Assembly: GCA_031459625.1 (NCBI GenBank) | Contig: JAVKIH010000002.1 | Location: 145,940-209,939, forward strand | DNA: 64,000 nucleotides | Source of the DNA: Candidatus Geohabitans tengchongensis | Lineage (GTDB): Bacteria; Sysuimicrobiota; Sysuimicrobiia; Sysuimicrobiales; Humicultoraceae | Direction: 5' to 3' | Made by a program: the position numbers and the translations under genes | Notes under the pieces: generated by a model | The model's input: only the letters and a program-made list of their open reading frames with translations | What the model was told of the DNA's origin: nothing | Database searches by the model: none | Shown here: positions 4,058 to 23,394 of the stretch, one piece after another | Numbering within the stretch: position 1 is the stretch's first letter | How the letters are laid out: each line of letters begins with the position of its first letter

Positions 4058-4066
4058 CCGGGCACC

Positions 4067-5425
4067 TCAGGGCTGCAGAGGCGCCAGGGCGGCCATCGCC
4101 GCCTCCACCGCCTCCTGCGGGTAGGCGAAGTCCTCCAGCCGGCCGGCCAGGAACTCCTCGTAGGCGCGCAGGTCGAAGTGCCCGTGCCCGCTCAGGTTGA
4201 AGAGGATCACCCGCCGCTCGCCGCGCTCGCGCGCCTCCACCGCCTCGTCGATGACCCGGCGGACGGCGTGCGCCGACTCCGGTGCCGGCACGATCCCCTC
4301 GGCCCGGGCGAACTGCACCGCCGCCTCGAAGACGGCCCGCTGCGGGTACGCCGCCGCCTCGATGTACCCGTGGTCGTAGAGCAGGCACAGCGACGGCGCG
4401 TCGCCGTGGTAGCGCAGCCCGCCGGCGTGGATCCCGGGCGGCACGAAGGTGTGGCCGAGCGTGTACATCTTGAAGAGCGGAGTGGTGGCGGCGGTGTCGC
4501 CAAAGTCGTAGAGGTAGCGCCCGCGGGTGAGGGAAGGACAGGCCTCGGGCTCCACCGCCACGAAGCGCGTCTTCGCCCCCTTGAAACGGTCGGGCAGGAA
4601 AGGGTAGGCCAGGCCGGAGAAGTTACTCCCCCCGCCCACGCACCCGATGACCACATCCGGCCCTTCCCCGGCCAGCTCCATCTGCCGGCGGGCCTCCAGC
4701 CCGATCACCGTCTGGTGGAGGAGGACATGGTTGGCCACGCTGCCGATGGCGTACTTGGTGTCGTCGTGGGTAGCGGCGTCCTCCACCGCCTCGCTGATGG
4801 CGATGCCGAGGCTGCCCGGCGAGTCGGACTGGCGCTCCAGGACGTCCCGCCCCGCCCGCGTCCGCTGGCTGGGGCTCGGCACCACCTCGGCGCCCCAGGT
4901 CTCCATCATCACGCGGCGGTAGGGCTTCTGCTCGTACGAGACCCGCACCATATACACGGTGCACGCCAGGTCGAAGAGCCGGCAGGCCAGGGCCAGCGCC
5001 GAGCCCCACTGCCCGGCCCCCGTCTCCGTGGTCAGGCGTCGGGTCCCCGCCTGTCTATTGTAGAAGGCCTGGGCCACGGCGGTGTTGGGCTTGTGGCTGC
5101 CGGCCGGGCTCACGCCTTCGTACTTGTAGTAGATGTGCGCGGGCGTCTGGAGGGCCTGCTCCAGCCGGTAGGCGCGGTGGAGCGGCGTGGGGCGCCACAG
5201 GCGGTAGACGTCGCGCACCGGTTCGGGGATGGGGATCTCCCGCTCGGTGGAGACCTCCTGGAGGATGATCTCCGTGGGGAAGATGGGAGCCAGGTCGTCG
5301 GGACCGATGGGCTGCTTCGTCCCCGGGTGGAGAACGGGCGGCAGCGGGACGGGCAGGTCGGCCAGGACGTTGTACCAGGCCTTCGGCAGGTCGCGCTCGT
5401 CCAGGACGAACTTGGTCTGGGGCAT
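4067..5425 (-). CDS. TrpB-like PLP-dependent enzyme (tryptophan synthase beta chain 2 / TrpB2 family)
   Basis: 452 aa, GSHKPNTA lysine motif region and TrpB2-type length/sequence; convergent with the aminotransferase. Confidence 0.8.
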
Positions 5426-5541
5426 GACACCATCCCTCCCGGTCGCACGACAGCTCCGTGCGGTGACTCCCTGAGGAACCCAGCAGGGGCCATTCGCCGC
5501 GGCCCGCCCGGCTTCCCGCTGGGCGCCCCCTCCGCGCCCCC

Positions 5542-5922
5542 CTAGGCGTCAGCCGGCTTCGATGGGGGTTCGATGGGGGCGTGCAGCTCGACCATGCGGC
5601 CGTCGGGGTCGTAGAGGTAGGCCGAGCGCCCCCAGGGAAACCGCGCTGGTCCCAGGACCGCGTAGCCGGCGGTCCGCAGGCGCTCGCACTCCGCCTCCAG
5701 GTCGTCCACCTCGAGGGCGATGTGGTCCACGTCCGCAGGCCAGCCGGGGGCGGGGGGCCCATCGCCGACCGGGTGGACGAGCAGCGTGACTCCGTCCACC
5801 GAGAAGTGGTAGGCACCCTGACCCGAGGCCGGGATCGGGTGCTCCAGCAGGGCGGCGTAGAACGCGGCCACAGCGTCCGGTTGCCTCGTGAACCGGGCCA
5901 CCTCGCTGATGCGGCGCCTCAT
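5542..5922 (-). CDS. VOC family protein (glyoxalase/bleomycin-resistance/dioxygenase fold)
   Basis: ~126 aa from MRRRISEV…; VOC-like sequence ([21 protein letters not shown]). Confidence 0.65.
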
Positions 5923-5981
5923 CCCTCCCCCCTTCACCCCAGTGAACGCCGAGGAGTCCATGACTTCGAAGGCTCTTCACA

Positions 5982-6020
5982 TAGCGTCACTCAGCGTCGC
6001 TTAGCGTCACTCAGCGTCGC
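5982..6020. repeat. Perfect tandem duplication of a 19-20 bp unit (TAGCGTCACTCAGCGTCGC x2) giving four AGCGTC hexamers at ~10-bp spacing
   Basis: Read directly: …atAGCGTCactcAGCGTCgcttAGCGTCactcAGCGTCgccg…, intergenic between opine DH stop and VOC start. Confidence 0.8.
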
Positions 6021-6090
6021 CGTCGGCGCCTCCTCCAGGGCGGCCGGTCCGGTCCCCATGGCGGGAACGGCGATTCGCGACCTCGCCGCC

Positions 6091-7212
6091 TCACCGCGGA
6101 AAACCCTCCCAGGGGCCGTTTGCCGCCAGTCGTTCCACCTCCGCCCGCGTCGCCCCGGCGATGCCCAGACGGCCCGCATGGAGCCCGACGGCCCGGTAGT
6201 CCACGCCGGTGACCACGGAGGCCAGGTGGATGAGCGCGTCCACCGTGGGCACCGACACGGCCGCGGCCTGCGCGAAGGCGGCCATGGGGACCAGGCCGTA
6301 GCCCACGTCCTCCTCGATGTACCGCCCCTCTAGGTTGGGCGGGGCCTTGATGTACCTGTTCGGGACGCTGTCGCGCAGCGCTTCGAAGACCGACCCGGCC
6401 TCCCAGGCGCGGCGCGACGTGAAGCCGGCCCGGTAGAAGAACTCCAGGAAGGAAGGCGTCTCGACACCGTAGGCCCGGGCGATCGCCTGGCGGTCCCGGT
6501 CCAGGGCCTCGATGGCCCGGGCCACCCCCGGGGTGGTCCCCTCGTAGTAGTAGTAGAACTGCCCGGCGGTGTGCTCGACCCACCCGGTGTTCAGCACCAT
6601 GCCCGCCGGGTGGAGGACCGCGTTGAAGTTGGACAGCGAGGTGACCAGCACCGTGGGGACGGGCTGGAGCTGCGGGTAGTAGCGCGCCAGCCGCCGGCAG
6701 GCATCCTCCCTGAGGCGCGCGGGCAGGACGCCGGCGGCGACGGTGCGGGCGGGCCCGGTGATGTTCACCCTGGTCGGCGAGACCATGCGGCAGATGTAGG
6801 TTAGCGTGTTGAACTCGACGACGGGCACCGGAGGAGCACCGCGGTCGGCGAGCCGCCGGGCGACGTGCAGGGCGCTGCCGGTGTTGCTGGCGTTGAGGAC
6901 CACCAGCTGGCCGGGCTCCAGGCAGTGCGCCAGCTGGTCGACGTAGAAGCTCTGACCCGGTGCGGGCACGGTGAGCATGACGACCTCCGCCCCGCGTACC
7001 GCCTCGGCCACCTCGGTGGTGATGCGCCCCACGGGTACGGTGGCCTCGCCCGGCGCTCCTGTGACCTCCACACCGCCCAGGCGCTGGAAGGGCAGGAGCC
7101 GCTCGGGACTCCGGTTGCACAGCGCCACGCGGAAGCCGCGCAGCCCCAGGTCCGCCGCTGCGGCCACGCCGCCGTTGCCCGCCCCCAGCACCGCCACGTC
7201 GATCCGCTCCAC
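6091..7212 (-). CDS. NAD/NADP octopine/nopaline (opine) dehydrogenase family protein
   Basis: 373 aa; N-terminal Rossmann VAVLGAGNGG and opine-DH-like C-terminal domain. Confidence 0.75.
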   Translation of the reverse strand: MERIDVAVLGAGNGGVAAAADLGLRGFRVALCNRSPERLLPFQRLGGVEVTGAPGEATVPVGRITTEVAEAVRGAEVVMLTVPAPGQSFYVDQLAHCLEPGQLVVLNASNTGSALHVARRLADRGAPPVPVVEFNTLTYICRMVSPTRVNITGPARTVAAGVLPARLREDACRRLARYYPQLQPVPTVLVTSLSNFNAVLHPAGMVLNTGWVEHTAGQFYYYYEGTTPGVARAIEALDRDRQAIARAYGVETPSFLEFFYRAGFTSRRAWEAGSVFEALRDSVPNRYIKAPPNLEGRYIEEDVGYGLVPMAAFAQAAAVSVPTVDALIHLASVVTGVDYRAVGLHAGRLGIAGATRAEVERLAANGPWEGFPR

Positions 7213-7217
7213 GGCGG

Positions 7218-8375
7218 CTAGCTCCAGGCCAGGCGGTAACGGCCCAGCTTGTCCGGGTCCACCGTAATCCCCAGCCCCGGCCCTGAGGGCACGCGCAGGG
7301 CGCCGGCACGGTATTCGAAGGGCGCGGCGAGGAGGTCATCGGTGTAGATCCGACCGGCCACCCGGGTCTGCTCCCGGCCGGCCACCGTGGTGATCGGGAT
7401 GATGGCCGGCACCGTGACGGCCGCCGACGCTGCCCCCAGGTGCAGATTGGCCGCGTTGCCGATGCCAAACTCCGCCGAGCCGCCCACGTCGGCCTCCATC
7501 CCCGCTGCCTCCAGGACGGCGGCCATCTGGCGCGCCCGGTACAGGCCGCCCGGTTTGGTCACGTAGAGCGAGACGTACCGCGCCGCACCGGCCTCCCGCA
7601 GGTGGAGGACGTCGCGCGGCGTCCAGGCGCTCTCGTCGGCCATGATGGGGACACTGACCGCGCGGGCGACGGCCGCCAGTTCGTCGATCCCTTCCGTCGG
7701 CTGCTCGGCCAGGGCCAGCCCCCACCGCTCCAGGACCCGGAGGGTCCGGATGGCCACGGGGACGGTGTAGGCCTGGTTGGCGTCGAGCCGGATCTCCACG
7801 TCCGGTCCCACGGCTTCCCGCACCGCCTCCACGGTGCGGATGTCCCGTGCCGGATCGGGGCCGCCTTTGACCTTGATGTGCGCGATCCCCTCCCCGACGA
7901 CCTGCCGCGCCTCCTCCACGGCCGCCTCCACGTCCATCAGGCCGATGCTGTGCCCCACGGGGATCCACTCCCGCACCTTCCCGCCCAGGAGCTCGTAGAC
8001 CGGGACGCCCAGGGCCCTCCCCTTCAGATCGTGCAGGGCGATGTCCAGGGCGGCCTTGGCGTAGGGGTGGCCCTTGATGACGCGGTCCATGACCTGATGG
8101 ACCCGGGGCAGGTCGAAAACGTCCTCCTCCCGGAGGGCGGGCAGGAGGAGGTCCTGCAGCACGTGGCGCACCGTCTGCGGCGTCTCGCCGTAGTGGGTGC
8201 CGTAGGCGCCGCCCCAGTCTGGCAGGCAGGGCGTCTCTCCCCACCCCTCCAGGCCGTCCTCGCCACGTACCCGCACGACGACGTAGCGGCCGATGGGTCC
8301 CTGCAGGCCCGCCCACCGGTGCACCCGGCGGGTCGGCAGGCCGACCAGCATCACCTCGAGCTCCGCAATCCTCAT
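7218..8375 (-). CDS. Mandelate racemase/muconate lactonizing enzyme (enolase superfamily) family protein
   Basis: 385 aa from MRIAELEV…; KVKGG, RLDANQAYT, ADES motifs; ORF-track 5' extension is spurious. Confidence 0.8.
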   Translation of the reverse strand: MRIAELEVMLVGLPTRRVHRWAGLQGPIGRYVVVRVRGEDGLEGWGETPCLPDWGGAYGTHYGETPQTVRHVLQDLLLPALREEDVFDLPRVHQVMDRVIKGHPYAKAALDIALHDLKGRALGVPVYELLGGKVREWIPVGHSIGLMDVEAAVEEARQVVGEGIAHIKVKGGPDPARDIRTVEAVREAVGPDVEIRLDANQAYTVPVAIRTLRVLERWGLALAEQPTEGIDELAAVARAVSVPIMADESAWTPRDVLHLREAGAARYVSLYVTKPGGLYRARQMAAVLEAAGMEADVGGSAEFGIGNAANLHLGAASAAVTVPAIIPITTVAGREQTRVAGRIYTDDLLAAPFEYRAGALRVPSGPGLGITVDPDKLGRYRLAWS

Positions 8376-9262
8376 GCTCCGCCCTCGCCCGCTGCCCGCC
8401 GCCGCCCCGCCCTGGCGACCCGGGAGCGGAGGAAGAGGTAGTCGCCGGCGCGCCGGACGCTGTGGAGGGAGAGGTGGGGCGCCACACCCGGCAGGAAGCC
8501 GGCGCCCTCCACCAGGCTCGGACGGGGACGGCGGCGGGACCCATCGCCGATGATGAGAGGACAGATCGTCAGGAACTCGTCGTCGACGCAGCCGGCCCGC
8601 AGCAGGGTGCCGTAGGTCCGCGCGCCCCCCTCGCACAACAGCGTGCGCACGGCGAACCGCCGGACCAGCATGGCCAGCAGCCGGCGGACCTGCACGGTGG
8701 CCGTCCCGAATGCCAAGACCTCCACCCCCCCTCGCCTGGCTACGGCGCGGGCAGCCTTCACCCCCCTGGTGGTGGTGGCCACGAGGACGCGCTGCCCCGT
8801 GCGGAACACCCGGGCCCGGCCGGGCAGCTCACCCGTCTGGGAGAGGATGACCAGCAGAGGGACCCGCTCCCGCCCCTCGGCGCGTCGGAGGGCGGCGAAG
8901 GCGGCCGCGTCGGCAGGAAAGATGTGTTCCGCGGTCCACACGTGGGAGGGGGAGGCCCGCAGGGTGCCGTCCCCGACCATCACCGCGTCCGCCCGCGCCC
9001 GCAGGAGGCCCATGAGCCAGCGGTCGTGCGGGTTGCGCTCGCTGACGTCGGCCGCCCCCCTGTGCCCCGGCACGTTGAAGGAGATCCGCCCGTCGTGCGA
9101 GGTGGCGAAGTTGACGAAGGTGTAGGGACGGCGCTCCCCACGGGGCAGCCGCCAGTCTCCACCATAGATGGCCCGAAAGGGCTCCGGCAGGGGGAGATCG
9201 CCTTCCTGGTCCCGCTCGAAGAGCAGGGCAAAGGGCCGACCGGGGCCCGTGGGCGCGATCAC
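8372..9262 (-). CDS. RibD C-terminal domain / dihydrofolate-reductase-like reductase
   Basis: RRPYTFVNFATSHDGRISF motif typical of RibD_C/DHFR-like family; GTG start overlapping upstream TGA (GTGA). Confidence 0.65.
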   Translation of the reverse strand: MIAPTGPGRPFALLFERDQEGDLPLPEPFRAIYGGDWRLPRGERRPYTFVNFATSHDGRISFNVPGHRGAADVSERNPHDRWLMGLLRARADAVMVGDGTLRASPSHVWTAEHIFPADAAAFAALRRAEGRERVPLLVILSQTGELPGRARVFRTGQRVLVATTTRGVKAARAVARRGGVEVLAFGTATVQVRRLLAMLVRRFAVRTLLCEGGARTYGTLLRAGCVDDEFLTICPLIIGDGSRRRPRPSLVEGAGFLPGVAPHLSLHSVRRAGDYLFLRSRVARAGRRRAAGEGGA

Positions 9263-9534
9263 CGCTCCCCGCTCCGCACCCGCATTGCCTCTTCCGGGGT
9301 CGAGGCGATGACGGCGATGGGCGTCCCCACCGTCACCGTGTGGCCTTCGCGGACCAGGATGCGGGCCACCACGCCGGCACAGGGCGCGGGCAGCTCCACA
9401 TTCGTCTTCTCGGTTTCCACAATGCAGAGGACGTCGCCTTCGGTCACGGGCTCGTCCTCGTCCACCATCCACTCGACGATGCGCCCCTCCGCCATGGTCA
9501 GCCCCCACTTCGGCATGCGCACCGTCTCGACCAT
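9259..9534 (-). CDS. Stand-alone lipoyl-attachment domain protein (E2-type lipoyl carrier, ~91 aa)
   Basis: MVETVRMPKWGLTMAEGRIVEW…CIVETEKTNVELPAP: classic biotin/lipoyl domain with lipoyl-lysine in ETEK; no catalytic E2 domain follows. Confidence 0.75.
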   Translation of the reverse strand: MVETVRMPKWGLTMAEGRIVEWMVDEDEPVTEGDVLCIVETEKTNVELPAPCAGVVARILVREGHTVTVGTPIAVIASTPEEAMRVRSGER

Positions 9535-9544
9535 GTCCGGCACG

Positions 9545-10564
9545 CTACGGCCGCCCGGCCGCCATGACCGCCCGGATCCCTTGGACGATGCGCGCCTCGC
9601 CGGGGAGGACGGCGTCTTCGAGTTCCGGCGCATAGGGGACGGGCGCGTTGAGCCCGGCGACCCGGACGATGGGCGCGCGCAGGAGGTCGAAGCACTCCTC
9701 CGCCACCAGGGCGGCCACCTCCGCCCCAAAGCCGGCACGCCGGGGCGCCTCGTGGACGATGACCAGGCGTCCCGTGCGGGCCAGGGAGCGACGGAGGCCG
9801 GCGCGGTCGAAGGGTACCAGCGAGCGCGGGTCCCACACCTCGACGGAGATGCCCTCGGCCGCCACCGCCTCGGCGGCGGCCAGGGCGCGGGGGACCATGG
9901 CCAGGTAAGCCAGCACGGTGACGTCCGTTCCCTCCCGCACCACCCGCCCGCTGCCCAGGGACACGGTGTAGTCTGACGCCGGCACGGCGCCCCGGCTCGT
10001 GTAGAGCAGTTTGTGCTCGAAGAAGAGGACCGGGTCCGGGTCCCGGATGGCGGCCTTGAGCAGCCCTTTGGCGTCGTACGGGGTCGCGGCGGTGACCACC
10101 TTCAAGCCGGGCGTGTGGGTGAACCACGCCTCCAGGCTCTGCGAGTGCTGGGCGGCCGTCGCGCCGGCCGTTCCCGTGACCATGCGGATGACCAGGGGGA
10201 CGTTCACCTGCCCGCCCGTCATGTAGCGCAGCTTGGCCGCCTGGTTGACGATCTGGTCCATGGCCAGGGTGGCAAAGTCGCCGAACATGATCTCCACCAC
10301 GACGGGGATGCCGGCCAGCGCCGCCCCCAGGGCCGTGCCGACGATCGCCGCCTCGGAGATCGGCGTGTCGAGGACGCGGTGGGGACCAAAGCGCTGCCAC
10401 AACCCCTGGGTGACCCCGAAGACGCCGCCGGGCTCGCCGATGTCCTCGCCCAGGAGGAGGAGCGCCGGGTCGCGCGCCAGCTCCTCCTCCAGCGCCTCCC
10501 GGATGGCCGCGGCGTAGCTGAGCTGACGGTCGGCCGCCTGCGGCTCAGGCCGGCGGGGGGTCAT
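9545..10564 (-). CDS. 2-oxoacid (pyruvate/acetoin-type) dehydrogenase E1 component beta subunit
   Basis: 339 aa transketolase-like pyrimidine-binding + C-terminal domains (GEDIGEPGGVFGVT…); ATGA overlap with E1 alpha. Confidence 0.85.
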   Translation of the reverse strand: MTPRRPEPQAADRQLSYAAAIREALEEELARDPALLLLGEDIGEPGGVFGVTQGLWQRFGPHRVLDTPISEAAIVGTALGAALAGIPVVVEIMFGDFATLAMDQIVNQAAKLRYMTGGQVNVPLVIRMVTGTAGATAAQHSQSLEAWFTHTPGLKVVTAATPYDAKGLLKAAIRDPDPVLFFEHKLLYTSRGAVPASDYTVSLGSGRVVREGTDVTVLAYLAMVPRALAAAEAVAAEGISVEVWDPRSLVPFDRAGLRRSLARTGRLVIVHEAPRRAGFGAEVAALVAEECFDLLRAPIVRVAGLNAPVPYAPELEDAVLPGEARIVQGIRAVMAAGRP

Positions 10565-11583
10565 GCGAGTGCGCTCCCGTCGTGGGTCTCGACGTAGACG
10601 TCCTCCAGGGCTTCGTCGGCCGCGGGGCGCGGCGCCTGCAACGCGAAGCGGACGCCGGCCTCCAGCCGCGCCTCCACCGCGCGCTCGACCTCCTCCAGGT
10701 CGGCCGTGGTGAACCCCGCCTCGGCCAGCAAGCGCTCCCGGAAGGTGACCACGGGATCCCGGGCCTGCCAGGCGGCCACCTCGTCCGGCGGACGGTAGTG
10801 TCCCATGTCGCCTTCGTAGTGCCCGCGCAGGCGGTAGGTCTTGCACTCGACCAGCGTCGGCCCCCGCCCCTGGCGCGCGTCGGTCACGGCCTTGCCCACG
10901 ACACGGAAGACATCGAGGACGTCGTTGCCGTCGGCGACCACCCCCGGCATGGCGTAGGCCACCGCCCGCCCGGCGATGTCCCGGATCGGCTGGTGCCTGT
11001 GCTGGGGGGTGAACTCGCCGTAGAGGTTGTTCTCGCAGATGAAGACGACCGGCAACCGCCACAGGGCGGCCAGGTTCAACGACTCGTGAAACACCCCTTG
11101 GTTGGAGGCCCCGTCGCCGAAGAAAGCCACGGCCACGCCGGCTGTGGGGGCCCCGGTCCCGGCCAGACGGGCGCGCACCGTCAGGGCGAGCGCCAGGCCC
11201 ACCGCGATGGGGATGCCGCCGCCCACGATGCCGTTGGCGCCCATGATGCCCAAGGCCGCGCTGGCGATGTGCAGGGACCCGCCCTTCCCCCGGTTGTAGC
11301 CTTCGCGGCGGGCAAAGAGCTCCGCGTACATGCGTCCGGGATCGGCGCCGCGCGCCAGGATGTGGCCGTGCCCCCGGTGGGTGCTGGTGATGTAGTCCTG
11401 GGGCTCGAGGGCGGCGCAGGCGCCCACCGCCACCGCCTCCTGTCCGATGGAGGGGTGGAGGAAGCCAGGGATGTGGCCGGCCAGGCGCAGTTGGGCCGCC
11501 CGCTCCTCGAACCGGCGGATGAGCAGCATGTCCGCGTACAGCCGTCGGAGGAAGTCGGGGGTGTAAACCATGGAGGCGCGCAT
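10561..11583 (-). CDS. 2-oxoacid dehydrogenase E1 component alpha subunit (TPP-dependent)
   Basis: 340 aa; TPP motif FFGDGASNQG…ENNLYG, YRLRGH. Confidence 0.85.
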   Translation of the reverse strand: MRASMVYTPDFLRRLYADMLLIRRFEERAAQLRLAGHIPGFLHPSIGQEAVAVGACAALEPQDYITSTHRGHGHILARGADPGRMYAELFARREGYNRGKGGSLHIASAALGIMGANGIVGGGIPIAVGLALALTVRARLAGTGAPTAGVAVAFFGDGASNQGVFHESLNLAALWRLPVVFICENNLYGEFTPQHRHQPIRDIAGRAVAYAMPGVVADGNDVLDVFRVVGKAVTDARQGRGPTLVECKTYRLRGHYEGDMGHYRPPDEVAAWQARDPVVTFRERLLAEAGFTTADLEEVERAVEARLEAGVRFALQAPRPAADEALEDVYVETHDGSALA

Positions 11584-11586
11584 GGC

Positions 11587-12420
11587 TCACCCGCCCTCCC
11601 GGCGGGGAAACCGGTCGGCAAAGATCGCGTGGATGGCCCGCACAGCCTCCCCGGACGTGCCCCGCGGTTTCACCTCGAACACCAGGGTCCCGTCGAAGCC
11701 CAGCTGGTGGAGATGCCGGTTGAGGTTCACAAAGTTGATCTCCCCGGTCCCCGGCTCGTGACGTCCGGGGACGTCGGCCACGTGCACGGCGGCCACCCGG
11801 TGGTGACACCGCTCCAGCGTCGCCATGAGGTTGCCTCCCGCCTGCTGCTGGTGGAAGTAGTCGTAGGTCATCGCCAGGGAGGGGTGGTCGACGGCCTCCA
11901 CGAGGCGCAGGCATTTCTCCGCCGTGTCCAGGAAGTACCCGGGGACCGAGACGGGGTTGATGGCCTCCAGCAACAGCACGACCCCGTGGGCCTGGGCCAG
12001 CGCGGCGGCCTGCCTCAACCCCTCCACCGCGTTCTCGAAGGCCTCCGCCTCGGCGAGCGGCCGGGTCGGGGGCACCACCGTCCCGTCCTGGCGGATCTCC
12101 TGGACGAAGGCGTGGACGGCCGGACACCCGACACGCCGGGCGCAGGCCAGGGACTCGGCCAGGCCGTCCAGGTTCGGGGCGTGCTGGGTGCGGTCAATGA
12201 GGGAGTAGCGGCGGTTGCCGAAGAAACCGGTAATGACCACGCCGGCGTGCGCCGCGGCGTCCGCCAGCCGGTCCATCTCCTTGGTGCGCCAGTCCCAGAA
12301 CTCCACGCCCTGGAACCCCGCCTGGGCCGCCGCCGCCACCCGGTCCACCAGCGGGAGCTCCGCGAACAGGAACTCGATGGACGCCGACGTGCCGACCACG
12401 GACCCGGGCGGGCGGCTCAT
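11587..12420 (-). CDS. Sugar phosphate isomerase/epimerase (xylose-isomerase-like TIM barrel; hydroxypyruvate isomerase-like)
   Basis: 277 aa from MSRPPGS…; TIM-barrel isomerase family sequence; ATGA overlap with upstream permease. Confidence 0.7.
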   Translation of the reverse strand: MSRPPGSVVGTSASIEFLFAELPLVDRVAAAAQAGFQGVEFWDWRTKEMDRLADAAAHAGVVITGFFGNRRYSLIDRTQHAPNLDGLAESLACARRVGCPAVHAFVQEIRQDGTVVPPTRPLAEAEAFENAVEGLRQAAALAQAHGVVLLLEAINPVSVPGYFLDTAEKCLRLVEAVDHPSLAMTYDYFHQQQAGGNLMATLERCHHRVAAVHVADVPGRHEPGTGEINFVNLNRHLHQLGFDGTLVFEVKPRGTSGEAVRAIHAIFADRFPRREGG

Positions 12421-13229
12421 CCCTTCAGCCCCGACATGGTGTACGTGCCGACGATCTCGCGCTGGGCCGCCAGGAACAGGGCCATGGCTGGCACCGTGGC
12501 CATGGTGGCCGCCGCCATCAGAGGGCCGAAGAGGGTGCCCCCCTCGGCGCTGACGAACCGGGCCAGCCCCAGGGGCAGGGTGGTGGCCCGGTCGCGGGCG
12601 ACCAGCAGCGGCCAGAAGTACTCGTTCCAGTTCTGGATGAAGAAGAGGATGGCCAGCGCCCCCAGCGCCCCGCGGTTGACCGGCACCACTACCCGCCAGA
12701 GGATCTGCCAGCGGGAAGCCCCCTCCAGCGCCGCCGCCTCCTCCAGGGAGGCGGGGAAGGCCAGGAAGTGCTGGCGCAGGAGGAAGATGCCAAAGGCGCT
12801 GGCCAGGTGGGGCACCGCCAGCCCCGGGATGGTGTCGATCCAGCCCAGGCGGGAAACCAGCAGGAAGTTGGGGATCATCGTGATCTGAAACGGCACCAGC
12901 ATGGTGCCCACGGTCAGCAGGAAGATCGCCTCCCGCCCGGGCGGGCGGAGGCGGGCGAAGGCGTAGGCCGCCAGGATGCTGGAGAGCAGCTGCCCCGCCA
13001 CCACCACGGCCGCCACCGCTAGGCTGTTGACGACGTAGCGCAGCATGGGCACCCGGGTCCAGACGTAGCGGAAGTTCTCCAGGGTGGGGGCGGTCGGCCA
13101 CAGGCTCAACGAACCGAAGACCTCCCGCTCGGTCTTGAACGCCGTGGTCACCATCCACAGGAGGGGAAACACCTGCAGCGCCGCCGCGGCCAGCACCACG
13201 GTGAAGGCCAGGGGGCGGTTAACCCTCAT
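12417..13229 (-). CDS. Carbohydrate ABC transporter permease (MalG-like, CUT1)
   Basis: 270 aa, 6 TM, EAA-loop region (EEAAALEGASRWQILWRVVVP). Confidence 0.85.
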   Translation of the reverse strand: MRVNRPLAFTVVLAAAALQVFPLLWMVTTAFKTEREVFGSLSLWPTAPTLENFRYVWTRVPMLRYVVNSLAVAAVVVAGQLLSSILAAYAFARLRPPGREAIFLLTVGTMLVPFQITMIPNFLLVSRLGWIDTIPGLAVPHLASAFGIFLLRQHFLAFPASLEEAAALEGASRWQILWRVVVPVNRGALGALAILFFIQNWNEYFWPLLVARDRATTLPLGLARFVSAEGGTLFGPLMAAATMATVPAMALFLAAQREIVGTYTMSGLKG

Positions 13230-14151
13230 AGTGGACGAACCGCTCCAGCAGCCGGAACTGCGCCCACGTCGCCCCCAGGAAGGCGACGAACATCACCACC
13301 GCCACCGCCGAGGCCAGTCCGGTCTGGAAGAACTGGAACCCGTAGTCGTAGATCAGGTAGACCAGGTTGGTCGTGCTACGATTGGGGCCGCCGGCGGTGA
13401 GGATCTGGATGGGCGTGAAGGTGTGCTGGGCCGTGGCGATGAGCGTGCTGAGACCGACGAACAGCGTCGTCGGCGAGAGGAGGGGCCAGACCACGTGGCG
13501 GAAGGTCTGCCAGGCCGAGGCGCCGTCCGCAGCCGCGGCGTCCAGGTACTCGGCGGGGATCGCGGCCAGCCCGGCCAGGTAGATCACCAAGTTGTACCCG
13601 AAGCTCTTCCAGGCCATGAGCACCACGATGGCCCAGAGGGCCCAGTCCGGGTCGCTGAGCCAGGAGCGCCCGGGCAACCCCGCCAGCGCCAGGGCCCGGT
13701 TGGCCACCCCGTGGATGGGATTGAGGATCCACAGCCAGACCATGCTGCCCACCGCGAAGGAGACCACGGACGGCGAGAACAGGGCCAGCTTGAGGACCGG
13801 CTGCAGCCGGCGGGAGAGCGCCAGCAGGCACACCGCCACGGCCAGGGGGACGCCGGCGGCCAGAGGGAGCACGGCACCGAAGTACTTGAGGGTGGTCCAG
13901 ACGGCGCCCCAGAACTCCGCGGAGCGCGCCAGGTCCCGGTAGTTCTCCAGCCCCAGGTAGGTGCGTGTGGGCGCGATGAGGTTCCAGCGGAAGAGGCTGA
14001 GCTCAACGGTCCGGAGGACCGGCCAGTAGGTGAACACCAGCAGCACCACCAGCGCCGGAATTGCGTACAGGTAGCCCAGGGGGCCCCTCCCCGTGGCCTC
14101 CCAGCTGCGGGGTCGGCGCAGAGCCCACCCGGCGGCCTGGGCGCGCGTCAC
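13219..14151 (-). CDS. Carbohydrate ABC transporter permease (MalF-like, CUT1)
   Basis: ~310 aa from GTG; EAA motif AAADGASAWQTFRHVVWPLL; GTGA overlap with upstream isomerase. Confidence 0.8.
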   Translation of the reverse strand: MTRAQAAGWALRRPRSWEATGRGPLGYLYAIPALVVLLVFTYWPVLRTVELSLFRWNLIAPTRTYLGLENYRDLARSAEFWGAVWTTLKYFGAVLPLAAGVPLAVAVCLLALSRRLQPVLKLALFSPSVVSFAVGSMVWLWILNPIHGVANRALALAGLPGRSWLSDPDWALWAIVVLMAWKSFGYNLVIYLAGLAAIPAEYLDAAAADGASAWQTFRHVVWPLLSPTTLFVGLSTLIATAQHTFTPIQILTAGGPNRSTTNLVYLIYDYGFQFFQTGLASAVAVVMFVAFLGATWAQFRLLERFVHYEG

Positions 14152-14948
14152 CGGGCCAGCCACCGGGCCAGCAGTGCCGCGCCCTCCCGCAGCCGGTCCA
14201 GGGCCGTGCCGGGCGCGTACTCGAGGACGCACTGACAGCGCGCCGGCAGCGCGTGCAGCACCGGGTGGAGCGCGGCCCACCCGATGGTCCCGTCGCCGAT
14301 GGGCAGGTGCCGGTCGGCGACGCCGTCGTTGTCGTGCAGGTGCACGGCCACGAGGCGGGACGCAAGGGTGCGGAAGGCCTCGGGGAGGTCCCACCCCGCC
14401 AGGTAGGCGTGGCCCACGTCCAGGAGGACCCCCGCCGTGTCAGGCAGCCGGGCAGCCAGGGCTGTGAACTCCTCCTGGTCGCAGACCTCCTGCCCGTGCC
14501 AGCCCACGTTCTCCACCGCCAGCACCACGCCGGCCTCGCGGGCCAGCGGGGCCAGGATCCCGATGGCCTCCTCCGCCCGTCGCAGGCAGGCAGGCCGCGG
14601 CAGGCTGGGGTCGCCCCGCCAGCCGACGTGCACCACGACGTAGGCGGCCTCCAGCCGGTGCGCCCACTCCAGGGCCTGGCGGTAGACGCCCAGCGCGGCC
14701 TCGCGGACGGGCGCGGTGTAGCTGGCGATGTTCACGTCCCAGGCGGGCGGGTGGAGGGAGACGGGGCCGGCGAAGGCGGACCGCGCCCGCCGCACCTCCT
14801 CGAAGGCGTCGGCAGCCCACCACTGGGGGCCTTCCATGAAGATCTCGAGCGCCGGGATGCCGGTCCGTGCCAGCGCCTGCAGCCCCGCCCCGATCGGCTC
14901 GGTGAGGACGGCAAACTGCGACACGGCCAGGCCGGGCCCGCTGGGCAT
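14148..14948 (-). CDS. Sugar phosphate isomerase/epimerase (xylose-isomerase-like TIM barrel), second paralog
   Basis: 266 aa; VLAVENVGWHG…VHLHDNDG metal-binding pattern. Confidence 0.75.
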   Translation of the reverse strand: MPSGPGLAVSQFAVLTEPIGAGLQALARTGIPALEIFMEGPQWWAADAFEEVRRARSAFAGPVSLHPPAWDVNIASYTAPVREAALGVYRQALEWAHRLEAAYVVVHVGWRGDPSLPRPACLRRAEEAIGILAPLAREAGVVLAVENVGWHGQEVCDQEEFTALAARLPDTAGVLLDVGHAYLAGWDLPEAFRTLASRLVAVHLHDNDGVADRHLPIGDGTIGWAALHPVLHALPARCQCVLEYAPGTALDRLREGAALLARWLAR

Positions 14949-14952
14949 GGGC

Positions 14953-16224
14953 TCAGCGCCCGACCAGGTCGGTGATGCGCGCCTGCGCCTCGTCCAGGGC
15001 CTGGGCGACGGGCGTGCGGCCGCTCAGGATGGCCGTCACCGCGTCGAGGATGGCGCGCTCGGCCTGGGGCCCCTGGCTGCCGGGGAAGTTGGTCCACCGC
15101 ACCACGGCGTCCAGCGTCTCCAGAGCCGGCCGGGCCAGCGGGTTGAGGGGGCGCACCTTCTGCGCCTCCACCATGCGCCGCAGCGGGGAGAGGTACCCCA
15201 GCCCGGTGGTCCACCGGCTCAACCCGTCCGCGGAGACCAGGTAGCGGATCAGCTTCCACGCGGCCTCCTGCTGCCGCGGGTCGAGGGCGAAGACGAAGAG
15301 GTTGTTGCCGCCGGCGACGACGCGGCGCGGGCGCGTCCCGAAGGTGGGGAAGGCCGCCGTCCGGAGCGTGAAGCGCGCGCTGCGCTGGAAGTTCTCCAGG
15401 TTGGCGATGGAGGCCACGTGCATGGCGATCTCTCCGCGCAGGAAGCTCGCCTGCGCTTCGTCGGAGGTGGCCAGCGGCGTGACCCGGTGGACGTTGACCA
15501 GGTCGCTGTAGAACTGGAGCGCCTCGCGGTTGGCCGGGGCGTTCACCGTCACCCGGCGGTTGTCGAGGCTCATGAACGCGCCCCCGGCGGACTCCACCAG
15601 CGACTGGATGACGAACGTGTCCCGGTTCCACAGGAAGACCCCGAACTTGCCCGTCCTGGCCCGAATGGCCAGAGCCGCCTGGAGCACCTCTTCCCACGTC
15701 GCCGGGGGGCGGTCAGGGTCCAGGCCGGCGGCCCGGAAGAGGTCCGCGTTGTAGAACATGACGGGGACGCTCAGGCTGTAGGGGATGCCGTGCTGCCGCC
15801 CGTGCTTCTGCCCGAAGGCCACCACCCGGGGCGCGAACCCGGCCAGCAGCTCCTTCCAGCCCGGGAACTCCTGGGCGGGCTTGTGTGGAAAGGTGTCGAT
15901 GACGAACTCCGTGAAGTTGTAGCCGATCACGGCCACGGCCGGAGGGGTCCGGGCGGCGATGGCAGCCTGGAGGCTCTGCAGCAGGCCGATGTAGCCGCCC
16001 GGCTGCAGGCGCTCGACGACGCGCACGCTGCCCTGGGACTCGTTGAACCGGCTCACGACGCTGCGCAGGACCGGGCCGCCGAAGGTCTCGGAGAAGATGT
16101 GCCAGTACTCGATGGTGATGCCGCCTGCCGGCGCCCCCCCGGTCGGTCGCACCCCCCAGACCCCCGGGAGCAACAGCGCCAGCGCCATGGCCAGCACCAC
16201 CCCGATGCCGCGTGTCGACCTCAT
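14953..16224 (-). CDS. ABC transporter extracellular sugar-binding protein (CUT1 family SBP)
   Basis: ~423 aa from MRSTRGIGVVLAMALALLL (signal peptide); family-1 SBP; ORF-track 5' extension spurious. Confidence 0.8.
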   Translation of the reverse strand: MRSTRGIGVVLAMALALLLPGVWGVRPTGGAPAGGITIEYWHIFSETFGGPVLRSVVSRFNESQGSVRVVERLQPGGYIGLLQSLQAAIAARTPPAVAVIGYNFTEFVIDTFPHKPAQEFPGWKELLAGFAPRVVAFGQKHGRQHGIPYSLSVPVMFYNADLFRAAGLDPDRPPATWEEVLQAALAIRARTGKFGVFLWNRDTFVIQSLVESAGGAFMSLDNRRVTVNAPANREALQFYSDLVNVHRVTPLATSDEAQASFLRGEIAMHVASIANLENFQRSARFTLRTAAFPTFGTRPRRVVAGGNNLFVFALDPRQQEAAWKLIRYLVSADGLSRWTTGLGYLSPLRRMVEAQKVRPLNPLARPALETLDAVVRWTNFPGSQGPQAERAILDAVTAILSGRTPVAQALDEAQARITDLVGR

Positions 16225-16244
16225 GATCCCTTCCCCCCTCCCCC

Positions 16245-17078
16245 TCAGGTCATCACCAACCCGCCGTCCACGTGGATGGCGTGGCCGGTGATGTAGGCCC
16301 CGTCCGGTCCGCACAGGAAGGCCACCACGCCGGCCACGTCCTCGGGCGTCCCCAGGCGCCCCAGCGGGATCTGTCCCGGCCGCTCCCGCAGGAACGTCCC
16401 TGGCGCCCGCCCGTCGCGCGCCGTGACCGCGGCGTCCACCTCTTCCAACATGCGGGTGTGAATGTTGCCCGGGCAGACGGCGTTCACCGTGATGCGATGC
16501 GGCGCCAGCTCGACCGCCAACGCCCGGGTCAGGCCCAGGAGCCCGGTCTTGGACGCCACGTAGGCCACGTCTTGGCCGAAGGCCGTCTTGCTGGAGATGG
16601 AGGCCATGTTGACGATGGTGCCCTGCCCGCGGGCGAGCATATCCGGGACCACCGCGCGTGCGCACAGCAGCGGACCCGTGAGGTTGACCGCCAGGCTCTG
16701 GTGCCAGTCCTCCAGGGGGAAGCCCAGCAGGGGCGTGCGGCGGTAGACTCCGGCGTTATTGACCAGGATGTCGATGGGCCCCAGCGCCTCCCGGGCGTCG
16801 CGGCAGGCCCGGGCGATGCTCGCCTCGTCGCGCACATCGAGCCGGGTCGCGATGGCCCGCCCGCCGGCGCGGGTGATCTCCGCGGCCACGCCCGCGGCGC
16901 TGTCTTCCTCGATATCCGCCACGACCACGGCCCCCCCGTCCCGCGCCAGCCGCAGCGCGATCCCCCGGCCGATCCCCCGACCGGCTCCCGTCACCAGGGC
17001 GACCCGCCCCGCCAGCGTCACCGACGCCCTCCGACCGGGCGCCGGCGGCCGGCCCCCCGACCGCTCCCTGTCCGCCAC
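16245..17078 (-). CDS. SDR family NAD(P)-dependent oxidoreductase (start may be internal GTG ~17020)
   Basis: GRVALVTGAGRGIG, NNAG, YxxxK (YVASKTG) motifs. Confidence 0.8.
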   Translation of the reverse strand: MADRERSGGRPPAPGRRASVTLAGRVALVTGAGRGIGRGIALRLARDGGAVVVADIEEDSAAGVAAEITRAGGRAIATRLDVRDEASIARACRDAREALGPIDILVNNAGVYRRTPLLGFPLEDWHQSLAVNLTGPLLCARAVVPDMLARGQGTIVNMASISSKTAFGQDVAYVASKTGLLGLTRALAVELAPHRITVNAVCPGNIHTRMLEEVDAAVTARDGRAPGTFLRERPGQIPLGRLGTPEDVAGVVAFLCGPDGAYITGHAIHVDGGLVMT

Positions 17079-17878
17079 CGGTCCGCCGTCAGGTGGCGCC
17101 GCCCACCCGTCCGGCCGGCCGGGTGACCCAGCTCCTCAGAGAGGCGCGCCGCCGTTTCCACCACCACCCGGGCCAGCGGCGGGATCCGCCCGGACGGGAT
17201 GTCGGCCGCGATCCCCGAGATCCCGATGGAGGCCACGACCTCGCCACCCCTGCCCCGGACCGGCGCGGCGATGCAGCGGATGTTGCGGTGGAACTCCTCG
17301 TCGTCCACGGCGTAGCCCTGGCGGCGAACGACCGCCAGGTGCCGCTCCAGCGACGGCAGCGTCACGCGGGTCTTGGGTGTGAACTTGGTCAGTCGGGCGT
17401 CGGCCAGCACGGCGCGCAGCCTGTCCGGCGGCAGACCCGCCAGCAGGGCCTTGCCCACGGCGGTGCAGTGCGCGGGGGCGACGTGACCGATGCCGATGTC
17501 CACCTGGACGCGGGAGGGCCCCTTCTCCTGGCCGACGTAGACGGTCCACAGCGGGTTCTCTGGCGCCAGCACCGCCAGGTGGGCGCTCTGCCCGGTCCGC
17601 GTCACCAACGCGGCCAGGTACGGCCGCGCGCGCTGGGGGAGGTCCATGCGGGAGAGCACCCGCGCCGACAGGGTCAGCAGGCCGGCGTCCAGGTCGTACC
17701 GGCGAGTCTGCGGGTCCTGGCGCACGTAGCCCCGCCGGCTCCAGGCCGCCAGGATACGGAAGACCGTGGCCTTGTCCAGGCGCAGGACGCGGGTCAGCTC
17801 GGACACCCCCAGCGGCCCCTCGCTGGCCACCAGCGCCTCGATGACCGCCAGCGCCCGCTCCAACGTCCGCGTGCGCAC
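17018..17878 (-). CDS. IclR family transcriptional regulator
   Basis: N-terminal HTH (ALAVIEALVASEGPLGVSELTRVLRLDKATVFRIL) + IclR effector domain. Confidence 0.8.
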   Translation of the reverse strand: MRTRTLERALAVIEALVASEGPLGVSELTRVLRLDKATVFRILAAWSRRGYVRQDPQTRRYDLDAGLLTLSARVLSRMDLPQRARPYLAALVTRTGQSAHLAVLAPENPLWTVYVGQEKGPSRVQVDIGIGHVAPAHCTAVGKALLAGLPPDRLRAVLADARLTKFTPKTRVTLPSLERHLAVVRRQGYAVDDEEFHRNIRCIAAPVRGRGGEVVASIGISGIAADIPSGRIPPLARVVVETAARLSEELGHPAGRTGGRRHLTADRWRTGSGRGAGRRRPVGGRR

Positions 17879-17965
17879 CCCTCCTGGGTGGTCTGTTTTA
17901 TTGAGCGCAACTCTGTTTCACTTCTTCCCGAACAAATACCTCTTCGACACCCGGGCGGGTCCCTT
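17879..17965 (-). promoter_or_regulatory. AT-richer island upstream of iclR with direct repeats (AAACAGA x2 on the minus strand); putative promoter/operator
   Basis: 160-nt gap, only local drop in G+C in this stretch; repeats read directly. Confidence 0.3.
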
Positions 17966-18039
17966 CCTCCTCCCGCGCCCCTACCCCCGCACGCCGGGAC
18001 GGCGCGGCGGCTCCGACCTCTTCCGCCGTGGGCCGCGGC

Positions 18040-19389
18040 TCAGTACGACCGCAGGACCCGACCCGCCGGCGGTCCGATGACCTCCCCGTCGCGGAAGACC
18101 ACGCGCCCCCCCTTGATGGTCGTCGTCGGCCAGCCGCGCAGGCGCATGCCATTGGCCGCGGTTTTGAACCGCGAGACCGTGGTCTGCGGGCTCACCACCC
18201 GCTCCCGGTCCATGTCGACCAGCACCAGGTCGGCGTCCTTGCCGACGGCGATGGCCCCCTTGCGGTCGTCGATGTGGTAGAGGCGGGCGGGGGTGAGACA
18301 GGCCACCCGGACCAGGTCCTGCAGGGTGATCCGCCCCCGGTGCACGCCCTCCGAGAGGAGCAGGGGCAAGGCCACCTCGATCCCCGGCATGCCGGCGGTG
18401 GCCTGCCAGAGGTCGTCGGTCTCGTGCTTCTCACACGAGATGTGGTCGGTACCGACGGTGGCGATGGCCCCGGAGCGCACCCCCGCCCACAGCCGCTCGC
18501 CGTTGGTGCGGTCGCGCAACGGCGGGTTCATCTTGCCGATGGCGCCGATCCGCGGTCCCGCCTCTTCCGGAAAGACCGTGAGGAACTGCACCAGCGTCTC
18601 CAGGATCAAGGGGCGCTGGGTCCACCGCTGCGCCGCCTCGATGCCCTCGGCGGCCGCCAGGTGCAGGACGACCGCGCGGCAGCCGGTGAGCTCGCTGAGG
18701 TAGGCCATCGTGTGGATGTCCGCCACCTCGCAGAAGGCCGGTCGGGCGTCGGTCCACGCCTGCAGGTCCCGCCGGCCCGTGCGCTGGACGGCCGGCAGCG
18801 TGTAGCGGATGATCTCGACGTCTTCGCAGTGGAGGGCGCAGAGGGCGTCGATCTGCGCGCACTGCCGCATGGTCAGGTAGGCGTCACCGTCGTCCAGGGG
18901 TTCGATGTCCAGCTCCGCCACGGCCCGGACACGGTAGTCCAGGTGCAGCTTGTAACAGAGGACCCCGAACCGCTCCCGGTACTGGGGAATCTCGTCGATG
19001 TGGCGGCGGTTCTGGATCTGAAGGTGGAAGACGACGTCGCAGTGAGAGCGCGCGGCCACCACCTGCTCCCAGGCCGGATAGACTTCCAGGTACGACGCCT
19101 TGGCGCGGGCGTGGGGCATCATCACCGTCGTGCCGCCCGCCACGGCCGCGGCGCTGGTCTGCTCCACGTCCACCTCGAAGGGGTAGTGGACCCCGAGGTG
19201 GATGTGGGGCTCCACCCGGCCCGGCAGCAGCACCTGCCCGCGCCCCTCCAGGACCTCCTCAGCTGCAGGGCCGTCCCCCTCGTCGCCCATGGCCACGATG
19301 CGCCCTCCCCGCACGGCCACCCAGCCCCGGAAGGTCAGGTCGGGGGTCACCACGTGGCAGTCGCGGACCACCAGATCGACTCGCGCCAT
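18040..19389 (-). CDS. Cyclic amidohydrolase (dihydropyrimidinase/hydantoinase/allantoinase-like, amidohydrolase superfamily)
   Basis: 449 aa; N-terminal MARVDLVVRDCHVVTPD…, HIHLG metal-binding motif, D-hydantoinase-like length. Confidence 0.75.
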   Translation of the reverse strand: MARVDLVVRDCHVVTPDLTFRGWVAVRGGRIVAMGDEGDGPAAEEVLEGRGQVLLPGRVEPHIHLGVHYPFEVDVEQTSAAAVAGGTTVMMPHARAKASYLEVYPAWEQVVAARSHCDVVFHLQIQNRRHIDEIPQYRERFGVLCYKLHLDYRVRAVAELDIEPLDDGDAYLTMRQCAQIDALCALHCEDVEIIRYTLPAVQRTGRRDLQAWTDARPAFCEVADIHTMAYLSELTGCRAVVLHLAAAEGIEAAQRWTQRPLILETLVQFLTVFPEEAGPRIGAIGKMNPPLRDRTNGERLWAGVRSGAIATVGTDHISCEKHETDDLWQATAGMPGIEVALPLLLSEGVHRGRITLQDLVRVACLTPARLYHIDDRKGAIAVGKDADLVLVDMDRERVVSPQTTVSRFKTAANGMRLRGWPTTTIKGGRVVFRDGEVIGPPAGRVLRSY

Positions 19390-19420
19390 CGCTGCCTCCT
19401 CCCGGACCCGTCCCCCCGCC

Positions 19421-20062
19421 TCAGGATCCCGGTGCGGGCGCGGGGGACGCGGCCAGCATCTCCAGGACCTGGTCGGAGGTCACCACCAGACCGCAGTAGT
19501 GCGCCCAGACGGCCAGGGCCATCTCGTGCCAGTCGCGGCGGATGCCGCCGATGCAGTCCGCGACGATGAGGAGGTCGTAGTCGCGCATGTACGCCTCGCG
19601 GACGGAGGTGTCGATACAGGCGTTGGTGGTGGTCCCGGTGACCAGGAGCGTGCGCCGGCCGAGAATGCGCAGCAGCACCTCGAGGCGCGTCCCGTAGAAG
19701 ACGCTGAACTTGTGCTTCTCGATGACGTGGCTGCGCCCGTCCAACAGCGGCTTGAGCTCGTCGGCGATCTCCGCATCCCACGTGCCGGGCTGGCAGGCGA
19801 TCCGGGCCCGCTTCTGGGTATGGGGCTGGATGCGGTGCAGGGTGCGGGTGCGGTCCTCGGGCAGGTGGTGCTGCACGGTCCAGATGTCGGGGATCGCCCG
19901 GGCCTTGCAGGCCTCGATGAGGCGCCGCAACGGCGGGAGGATGGCCGAGAGCAGTGTGGTGTCCACGCCGCTCAGCCCCAGGGTGCCCTGGGGGTGCAGG
20001 AAGGCGTTCTGGGCGTCGATGACCAGCAGCGCCGTATCGTTTACATCGAGGGTGTAGTCCAT
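19421..20062 (-). CDS. Isochorismatase-family cysteine hydrolase (CSHase/BiuH/RutB/nicotinamidase-like)
   Basis: 213 aa; LLVIDAQNAF, K and C (TNACIDTSVREA) catalytic-triad context. Confidence 0.8.
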   Translation of the reverse strand: MDYTLDVNDTALLVIDAQNAFLHPQGTLGLSGVDTTLLSAILPPLRRLIEACKARAIPDIWTVQHHLPEDRTRTLHRIQPHTQKRARIACQPGTWDAEIADELKPLLDGRSHVIEKHKFSVFYGTRLEVLLRILGRRTLLVTGTTTNACIDTSVREAYMRDYDLLIVADCIGGIRRDWHEMALAVWAHYCGLVVTSDQVLEMLAASPAPAPGS

Positions 20063-23338: not shown

Positions 23339-23394
23339 CGCCCATCCCCTCCGCCTCCCCGCCTCCCGGCCGGCCGGTAGCCAGCGCGCCCCGG

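Follow-up and report, generated by a model that had tools for sequence, protein, structure and literature searches.

A free lipoyl-domain protein encoded with an E1 pair and without an E2 core: a candidate acetoin-dehydrogenase-like C-C cleavage unit found across bacterial phyla

In a 64,000-nucleotide stretch of the Candidatus Geohabitans tengchongensis genome (contig JAVKIH010000002.1, positions 145,940 to 209,939 of the forward strand; hereafter the window, to whose first letter all coordinates refer unless a locus is named), the genes for the alpha and beta subunits of a 2-oxoacid dehydrogenase E1 component are followed by a gene for a free lipoyl-domain protein of 91 residues (Lip). We favor, with modest confidence, the reading that E1alpha, E1beta and Lip form a dedicated thiamine-diphosphate- and lipoyl-dependent unit for C-C bond cleavage which resembles acetoin dehydrogenase (Aco) and works without an acyltransferase (E2) core of its own. 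Together with genes for a short-chain dehydrogenase/reductase (SDR) and a hydroxypyruvate-isomerase-like protein (TIM barrel 2), the trio makes up a five-gene cassette that recurs across phyla. A first-pass annotation of the same DNA had recognized the E1 pair and the lone lipoyl protein and had assigned them to a carbohydrate catabolic route; the former description held, and the latter covers too little and probably points the wrong way.

E1alpha, the thiamine-diphosphate-binding subunit (340 residues; 10561-11583, minus strand), matched PF00676 with 252 bits, and E1beta (339 residues; 9545-10564, minus strand), whose start overlaps the E1alpha stop by 4 nucleotides (nt), matched PF02779 and PF02780, in agreement with the earlier placement of the pair in the pyruvate dehydrogenase (PDH)/acetoin type. 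Profile hidden Markov models, proposed at that time as a check of the E1 subfamily, placed E1beta over the cut-off of the PDH E1beta subfamily model NF006667 (362 bits, cut-off 321) and E1alpha under the equivalog cut-off of PDH_E1_alph_y (TIGR03182; 341 bits, cut-off 394). The nearest solved E1 structures were of the PDH or branched-chain 2-oxoacid dehydrogenase (BCKDH) type, including human PDH and a Thermus 2-oxoacid dehydrogenase; no curated Aco-specific E1 match was returned from NCBIfam or the PDB, and the source names of members of the E1 clade described below are a mixture of PDH and acetoin. E1alpha carries the GDG...NN cofactor motif and its His255 aligned with His263 of human PDH E1alpha, while Glu71, His140, Phe94 and Phe97 of E1beta correspond, by alignment with 1w85_B, to betaE59, betaH128, betaF82 and betaF85 of Geobacillus stearothermophilus. 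In that system betaE59 serves in cofactor activation, betaH128 contacts the substrate and donates a proton to lipoate, and the histidine of the alpha subunit (H271alpha in G. stearothermophilus) helps the acyl group pass to the lipoyl group (PMC2663715). Because betaGlu71, betaHis140 and alphaHis255 are all conserved, the E1 machinery for reductive acylation of lipoate is intact. In vitro, E1 enzymes accept their cognate lipoyl domains well in free form.

Lip (9259-9534, minus strand) is a minimal lipoyl domain, as had been claimed. It matched PF00364 with 78 bits, its Pfam matches were restricted to barrel-sandwich families (Biotin_lipoyl and related), and no acyltransferase or subunit-binding domain was among them. 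Its putative site of lipoyl attachment is Lys43 (codon 9406-9408), within VETEKT, which a six-frame scan found to be the sole lipoyl-lysine motif of the 64 kb; with the ETEK motif in place, Lys43 is presumably lipoylated. Among NCBIfam models, Lip matched best to the N-terminal part of AcoC, the E2 of acetoin dehydrogenase (NF011457, 86.6 bits against a cut-off of 307, the match spanning residues 2-80 only of 372 positions), with the E2 models of PDH and 2-oxoglutarate dehydrogenase (OGDH) at 58 bits or less. E2 models scored above biotin-carrier models, and the GcvH family was absent from both the Pfam and the NCBIfam matches, E2 lipoyl domains being on top. Homologues of Lip are 61-77% identical across phyla, an identical 91-residue gene call is present in public metagenome-assembled genomes (MAGs), and the Lip gene directly follows the E1beta gene in every case. 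Five close homologues of 85-91 residues share 39 invariant positions, including MPKWGLTM and VETEK, and Lip is under strong conservation.

The first-pass annotation had also noted the absence of a nearby E2 core or dihydrolipoamide dehydrogenase (E3), and this was borne out both by motif scans and by Pfam scans. Neither the E2 catalytic motif DHRxxDG nor the E3 redox-disulfide motif occurs in the six frames of the whole window; as a positive control, the same scan detected both motifs in loci that encode complete complexes. When 60 of the approximately 66 window genes were scanned with Pfam and the public permease calls were added, no PF00198 (2-oxoacid_dh), Pyr_redox or lipoate ligase came up, and the scanned genes outside the island showed housekeeping functions (a his operon, Fpg/Nei, proteases, a peptide ATP-binding cassette (ABC) system). 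Beyond the window, neither E2 nor E3 was found within about 10 kb of the cassette in Pfam-annotated contexts from several phyla, nor in motif scans of 21 related loci with about 10 kb of flank. Because no E2 core, peripheral-subunit-binding domain or E3 is present, a complex could apparently not assemble around an E2 scaffold here.

A short reading frame at the usual position of an E2 gene, in high-GC DNA that gives many spurious open reading frames (ORFs), might be a decayed E2 remnant or a mis-called ORF, with E1 either non-functional or independent of Lip. We consider this explanation extremely improbable. The call for Lip is backed by third-position GC, Lip proteins of 77-92 residues occur in about 21 species of at least three phyla, the lysine of the ETEK motif is invariant among the close homologues aligned, and the next gene overlaps the Lip stop by 4 nt, so that there is no room for E2 debris. 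Cross-phylum conservation, length and gene overlap together effectively refute a remnant. The case that the annotation had itself set against its claim, a degraded E2 with an E2/E3 pair just outside the cluster, can be dismissed within the 64-kb window, and the same conservation contradicts it.

The distribution of free Lip was examined by scanning genomes, one per species, with a five-sequence lipoyl alignment, which returned 80 loci (L-numbers below). The lipoyl ORF was stand-alone in 21 of these, with a stop within a few residues of the domain end and a length of 77-92 residues; the exception is L021, with a 61-codon open extension past the lipoyl domain. Almost all other retrieved loci continue for approximately 250-390 residues after the lipoyl domain, as a full E2 does, and a few of the loci lacking a free Lip end at a contig edge or look truncated. 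The hosts of free Lip include Armatimonadota-like contigs, Ktedonobacteria (Chloroflexota), Solirubrobacterales, other Actinomycetota and Acidimicrobiia, and among them are the cultured Thermogemmatispora tikiterensis T81, T. aurantia A1-2 and T. carboxidivorans PM5. E1alpha of the free-Lip loci was 61-77% identical to that of the window (62-82% for E1beta), versus 40-54% in the closest retrieved systems whose E1 is linked to a full-length E2 (not typed individually as Aco or PDH), and a neighbor-joining tree of concatenated E1alpha and E1beta gathered all free-Lip loci in one clade. A protein search yielded at least 120 clusters with an E1alpha at least 63% identical to that of the window, Gaiellaceae and Deinococcus MAGs included, and many members of the clade bear the source name acetoin:DCPIP oxidoreductase. 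A tblastn search of E1alpha against plasmids gave a single distant Rhodococcus match. Because E2s with multiple lipoyl domains dominate the ranking, a profile search of 1.8 billion representative proteins with the lipoyl alignment was uninformative on the number of stand-alone proteins. An apparent Lip-SDR fusion in L037 was ruled out, as a TAG stop follows residue 77.

Two further genes travel with the trio. TIM barrel 2 (277 residues, PF01261; 11587-12420, minus strand) is similar to hydroxypyruvate isomerase and 2-oxo-tetronate isomerase, with 161 bits for TIGR03234 and 144 bits for NF043033 (both under cut-off) and with 3ngf and 1k77 (YgbM) as its closest solved structures; of 25 free-Lip loci compared, 23 had a homologue, and the E2-linked loci had none. 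The SDR (258 residues, PF13561 and PF00106; 16245-17021, minus strand) adjoins the E1/Lip genes in almost every member of the free-Lip clade, and its orthologues, 65-78% identical, stand beside E1alpha in L012-L025 and L017-18. Since TIM barrel 2 is so nearly constant and the SDR almost always adjacent, the conserved core consists of SDR, TIM barrel 2, E1alpha, E1beta and Lip. In Acidimicrobiia, this core occurs as a bare five-gene cassette with a 77-residue Lip (L027 6574-15270; L030 5488-17044), inserted in the trp operon with trpE and a GcvT/YgfZ-like gene on one side and trpC-F-B-A on the other.

The GcvT/YgfZ-like folate-binding gene is always just upstream of the Acidimicrobiia E1alpha and is absent from other clades. 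The TrpB matches of Acidimicrobiia were rejected as a link to the TrpB-like gene of the window (see below), as they belong to an ordinary trp operon. In the sister MAG GCA_031458815.1 (L002 2316-3191), the SDR gene is in two pieces of 112 and 146 residues, which reflects a frameshift or an assembly error.

The wider setting of the cassette is rich in amidohydrolases. In most other lineages it stands among hydantoinase-, deaminase-, isochorismatase- and creatinase-like genes, and the gene set found upstream of it in the window accompanies the E1/Lip cassette in L012-L026, L053, L099 and L101. In Gaiellaceae and relatives, a single operon encodes an aldehyde dehydrogenase, SDR, TIM barrel 2, a second SDR, E1alpha, E1beta and Lip, followed by a 4-OT tautomerase, an isochorismatase::VOC fusion, creatinase/M24, MR_MLE, Octopine_DH-family (OctDH), DpaA-like and hydantoinase-like amidohydrolase genes. 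The Actinomycetota fusion has 328-331 residues (L099 4021-5007; L101 11459-12454), and in the window isochorismatase (19421-20062) and VOC protein (24843-25235) are encoded by separate genes. In other genomes a creatinase-like gene is followed by the MR/MLE, OctDH and DpaA-like genes; the MR/MLE and OctDH genes belong to the amidohydrolase module and not to E1 as such.

These comparisons also bear on the carbohydrate route. Under this explanation, a sugar imported by the CUT1-type transporter would be isomerized and the resulting ketose cleaved in a transketolase-like manner by E1 onto the lipoyl carrier. The operon of the window does hold a CUT1-type binding protein, two permeases and two proteins of the xylose-isomerase fold, and QncN/QncL provide a precedent in which a ketose-cleaving E1-like enzyme loads a C2 unit onto a lipoyl arm (PMC6335953). 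However, the CUT1 transporter, TIM barrel 1, RibD_C protein and IclR regulator are found only in the sub-branch formed by the window and L017-L019, and because of this the sugar transporter does not define the pathway. The CUT1/TIM barrel 1 insert (12417-16224) is absent from Actinomycetota and Acidimicrobiia, and Ktedonobacteria have the same gene set with a Bmp-type (nucleoside-type) ABC transporter in place of CUT1. Other lineages thus carry a Bmp-type transporter or none and most have the amidohydrolase-rich modules, and the Qnc acyltransferase domain and acyl carrier protein (ACP) are both absent here. We therefore regard a sugar-catabolic role as improbable.

We propose the following scheme for the cassette. 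The SDR would oxidize a hydroxyl of the substrate, creating a carbonyl, and the Hyi/OtnI-like TIM barrel 2 would shift this carbonyl along an alpha-hydroxy-carbonyl unit via an enediol, the favored type of substrate being an unsymmetrical alpha-hydroxy-carbonyl compound. The E1 cofactor would add to the 2-oxo group and the neighboring C-C bond would be cleaved, releasing an aldehyde (as in acetoin-type chemistry) or, if the neighbor is a carboxylate, CO2; in Actinomycetota, the aldehyde half may be oxidized by the aldehyde dehydrogenase of the same operon. E1 would then reductively load the remaining acyl group onto the lipoyl-lysine of Lip, which would act as a diffusible shuttle comparable to the H-protein. 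Removal of the acyl group would take place in trans, by a housekeeping E2 core or a hydrolase encoded elsewhere, and the dihydrolipoyl form of Lip would likewise be re-oxidized in trans by the E3 of the cell. In this organism the unit would carry out a single reaction within a larger catabolic island that acts on a nitrogen-rich cyclic compound, probably imported in a glycosylated or side-chain-bearing form. The gene content, the conserved catalytic residues, the recurrence of the five-gene cassette across phyla and the lack of a nearby E2 or E3 are observations; we infer the class of substrate, the order of steps, lipoylation at Lys43 and recycling in trans.

The assignment to acetoin-type chemistry draws on the proximity of Lip to the AcoC N-terminus (86.6 bits versus 58 or less), the aldehyde dehydrogenase of the Actinomycetota operon, the acetoin:DCPIP oxidoreductase names within the clade, and the SDRs that accompany classical aco clusters (PMC3543383). 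A different account of the same genes is that of an ordinary 2-oxoacid dehydrogenase E1, which would oxidatively decarboxylate a 2-oxo-3-hydroxy acid (e.g., hydroxypyruvate or 2-oxo-tetronate) supplied by joint action of SDR and Hyi/OtnI-like isomerase, with Lip handing the hydroxyacyl group to the housekeeping E2/E3. Its case lies in the PDH model scores of E1beta (over the subfamily cut-off) and E1alpha (341 bits), in human PDH and the Thermus 2-oxoacid dehydrogenase as best solved relatives, and in TIM barrel 2, for which hydroxypyruvate isomerase and 2-oxo-tetronate isomerase are the nearest named families and YgbM a close structure. The AcoC-like nature of Lip and the aldehyde dehydrogenase argue the other way, as does the failure of E1alpha to reach the PDH equivalog cut-off, and as a whole we consider decarboxylation possible but doubtful.

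Several points weigh against an acetoin-dehydrogenase-like unit. Because E1beta passes the PDH E1beta model and E1alpha is nearest to PDH/BCKDH structures, plain 2-oxoacid decarboxylation would be about as compatible with the data, and among the sequence features examined none separated the two chemistries. The enzymes nearest to TIM barrel 2 among those characterized, hydroxypyruvate isomerase and 2-oxo-tetronate isomerase, use 2-oxo-3-hydroxy acids as substrates. The main gap is the fate of the acyl-lipoyl group after its formation: no acyl-removing enzyme is conserved with the cassette in the loci compared, and no conserved candidate for re-oxidation of Lip is encoded with the cassette. In addition, an AlphaFold2 model of Lip built from the five-sequence alignment was unusable (predicted local distance difference test score of 41).

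A bolder reading, which we consider unlikely, is that Lip serves as the obligatory acyl carrier of a pathway without any E2, and that the island of more than 20 genes constitutes an undescribed catabolic route for a nitrogen heterocycle. Non-E2 enzymes of the cassette or island may in this case process or discharge the acyl form of Lip, for example through hydrolysis, transfer to an amine, or action of the SDR and isomerase on the tethered acyl group, and the heterocycle may bear a dihydroxyalkyl or glycosyl side chain, pterin-like compounds being one candidate. That the island degrades pterin-like compounds is speculation, prompted by weak similarities of the cog0402-type deaminase, the RibD_C relative of Rv2671 and the Bmp-type transporter. 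If true, Actinomycetota, Chloroflexota and Armatimonadota of soils and hot springs would commonly possess such an E2-free route.

Within the window, the trio is part of a tightly packed minus-strand run of 13 genes. Because the window has a GC content of about 73%, at which unfiltered ORF lists are crowded with shadow ORFs, third-position GC was used for gene calling and Pfam and NCBIfam served as a check. The public annotation of the Armatimonadota MAG GCA_031460055.1 agrees, the 91-residue lipoyl protein included. In order of transcription, the run comprises an IclR-family regulator (17018-17878; PF09339 and PF01614), whose stop overlaps the SDR start (junction of -4 nt), the SDR, a CUT1-type solute-binding protein (14953-16224), the xylose-isomerase-like TIM barrel 1 (14148-14948), two BPD_transp_1 permeases (13219-14151 and 12417-13229; Pfam assignment and public gene calls), TIM barrel 2, E1alpha, E1beta, Lip, a RibD_C/pyrimidine-reductase-family protein of 296 residues (8372-9262; PF01872, 84 bits), an MR/MLE enolase-superfamily enzyme (7218-8375) and OctDH (6091-7212). 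The RibD_C gene is the one whose start overlaps the Lip stop, and the PDB relatives of its product include Rv2671 (4xrb). No ATPase gene for the CUT1-type transporter was found within this operon. All junctions from IclR to OctDH measure between -11 and +20 nt and six are 4-nt start/stop overlaps, a layout that fits a single operon with translational coupling, as previously described. Every gene named in the first-pass annotation is present, but OctDH and IclR lie just outside the interval 7218-17078 given there, and the end coordinate 17078 corresponds to the longest-ORF start of the SDR, whose likely start is 17021. Counts from a promoter and terminator scan of 3800-19500 were at chance level.

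The island extends upstream, on the same strand, through 18040-29074. By Pfam and NCBIfam, this half encodes, in transcription order, a GntR regulator (at 29074), an NMT1-type ABC transporter, a 4-OT tautomerase, the VOC protein and a cog0402-type deaminase, followed by a creatinase/M24 protein, a DpaA-like protein, a cytosine-deaminase-like amidohydrolase, the isochorismatase and a hydantoinase-like amidohydrolase. All island enzymes scanned scored under their own NCBIfam equivalog cut-offs, and the only models exceeded were two generic subfamily models, NF006667 for E1beta and NF005559 for the SDR; by these scores the island is uncharacterized, as had been surmised for the pathway.

Several other features of the window were recorded. 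A stand-alone TrpB-like PLP (pyridoxal phosphate) enzyme (NF009057, 744 bits; 4067-5425, minus strand) lies at the island tail, after a small VOC protein (5542-5961), and its adjacency to the cassette is not kept in related loci. Directly upstream of the island GntR regulator is a 648-residue ABC_ATPase/MRB1590-type P-loop protein (PF09818; 29220-31166, minus strand). Further away are a tandem pair of Fpg/Nei DNA glycosylase paralogues (35571-37240, minus strand) and a his biosynthesis operon (45663-52254, minus strand) in which a HisZ-like histidyl-tRNA-synthetase paralogue adjoins a short HisG. On the plus strand, 41322-44708 encodes a fusion protein of at least 1128 residues with FAD_binding_4/FAD-oxidase_C, 4Fe-4S and CCG domains, which resembles a GlcD/GlcF-like glycolate or D-lactate oxidase fusion.

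The textbook setting of a lipoyl-dependent E1 is the giant E1-E2-E3 complex, and a coherent E1 clade paired with free Lip and never with E2 suggests a second use of lipoate, as a diffusible carrier. The large unannotated catabolic island in which the clade is embedded is common in soil metagenomes. With PDH and BCKDH (alpha2beta2 E1), the present system shares the E1 fold, the catalytic residues and the lipoyl-lysine acceptor chemistry; unlike them, it has no E2 core, peripheral-subunit-binding domain or E3 here. In glycine cleavage, the small lipoylated H-protein moves freely as a shuttle between separate enzymes and is re-oxidized by a shared E3. Lip differs in being an E2-type lipoyl domain with no GcvH Pfam match, and it would carry an acyl group where the H-protein carries aminomethyl. 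Related arrangements have reportedly been noticed before, namely an "unattached lipoyl domain" said to be described by Wanner and Soppa in 2002 and a putative acetoin dehydrogenase with a truncated E2 in Sulfolobus, said to be reported by Payne et al. in 2010.

Like the acetoin dehydrogenase system (AcoA/AcoB/AcoC/AcoL), the cassette has a heterotetramer-type E1alpha/beta predicted to reduce a lipoyl group, and its Lip is nearest to the AcoC N-terminus. SDR-type diol/acyloin dehydrogenases are found near aco clusters as well (PMC3543383), and an aldehyde co-product would fit the neighboring aldehyde dehydrogenase. In contrast to Aco, both the acyltransferase or hydrolase-fold domain of AcoC and the operon-encoded AcoL (E3) are missing here, and an isomerase has been added. 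A similar loading reaction is known from QncN/QncL/QncM and SclQ1-4, where the E1-like thiamine enzyme gains a C2 unit by cleavage of a ketose phosphate and passes it to a lipoyl group; those systems are biosynthetic and have a lipoyl-acyltransferase fusion and a dedicated ACP, whereas the island contains no such domain or ACP (PMC6335953).

The closest precedent lies in Haloferax volcanii, and a literature search on stand-alone lipoyl domains found little beyond it. There, oadhA2-oadhB2-oadhL (HVO_2595-2597) encode E1alpha, E1beta and an 86-residue lipoyl-domain-only protein with no cognate E2 or E3; identity of the E1 subunits to acetoin E1 is about 40%, a single E3 is encoded elsewhere in the genome, and the substrate was never found despite several studies, with pyruvate and 2-oxoglutarate excluded (PMC8305020). 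By gene layout, the trio of the window has the identical architecture, so the architecture as such is already published. How an E1 makes use of a free lipoyl protein is a long-standing question that can now be addressed in Thermogemmatispora cultures, and the conserved partners (the SDR, the Hyi-like isomerase and, in many cases, an aldehyde dehydrogenase) narrow down the chemistry further than the haloarchaeal example does. Unlike the window trio, the haloarchaeal one is archaeal and is not described as lying within an amidohydrolase-rich island; what appears to be new here is the bacterial clade, its strict association with an SDR and a Hyi-like isomerase, and its setting in such an island.

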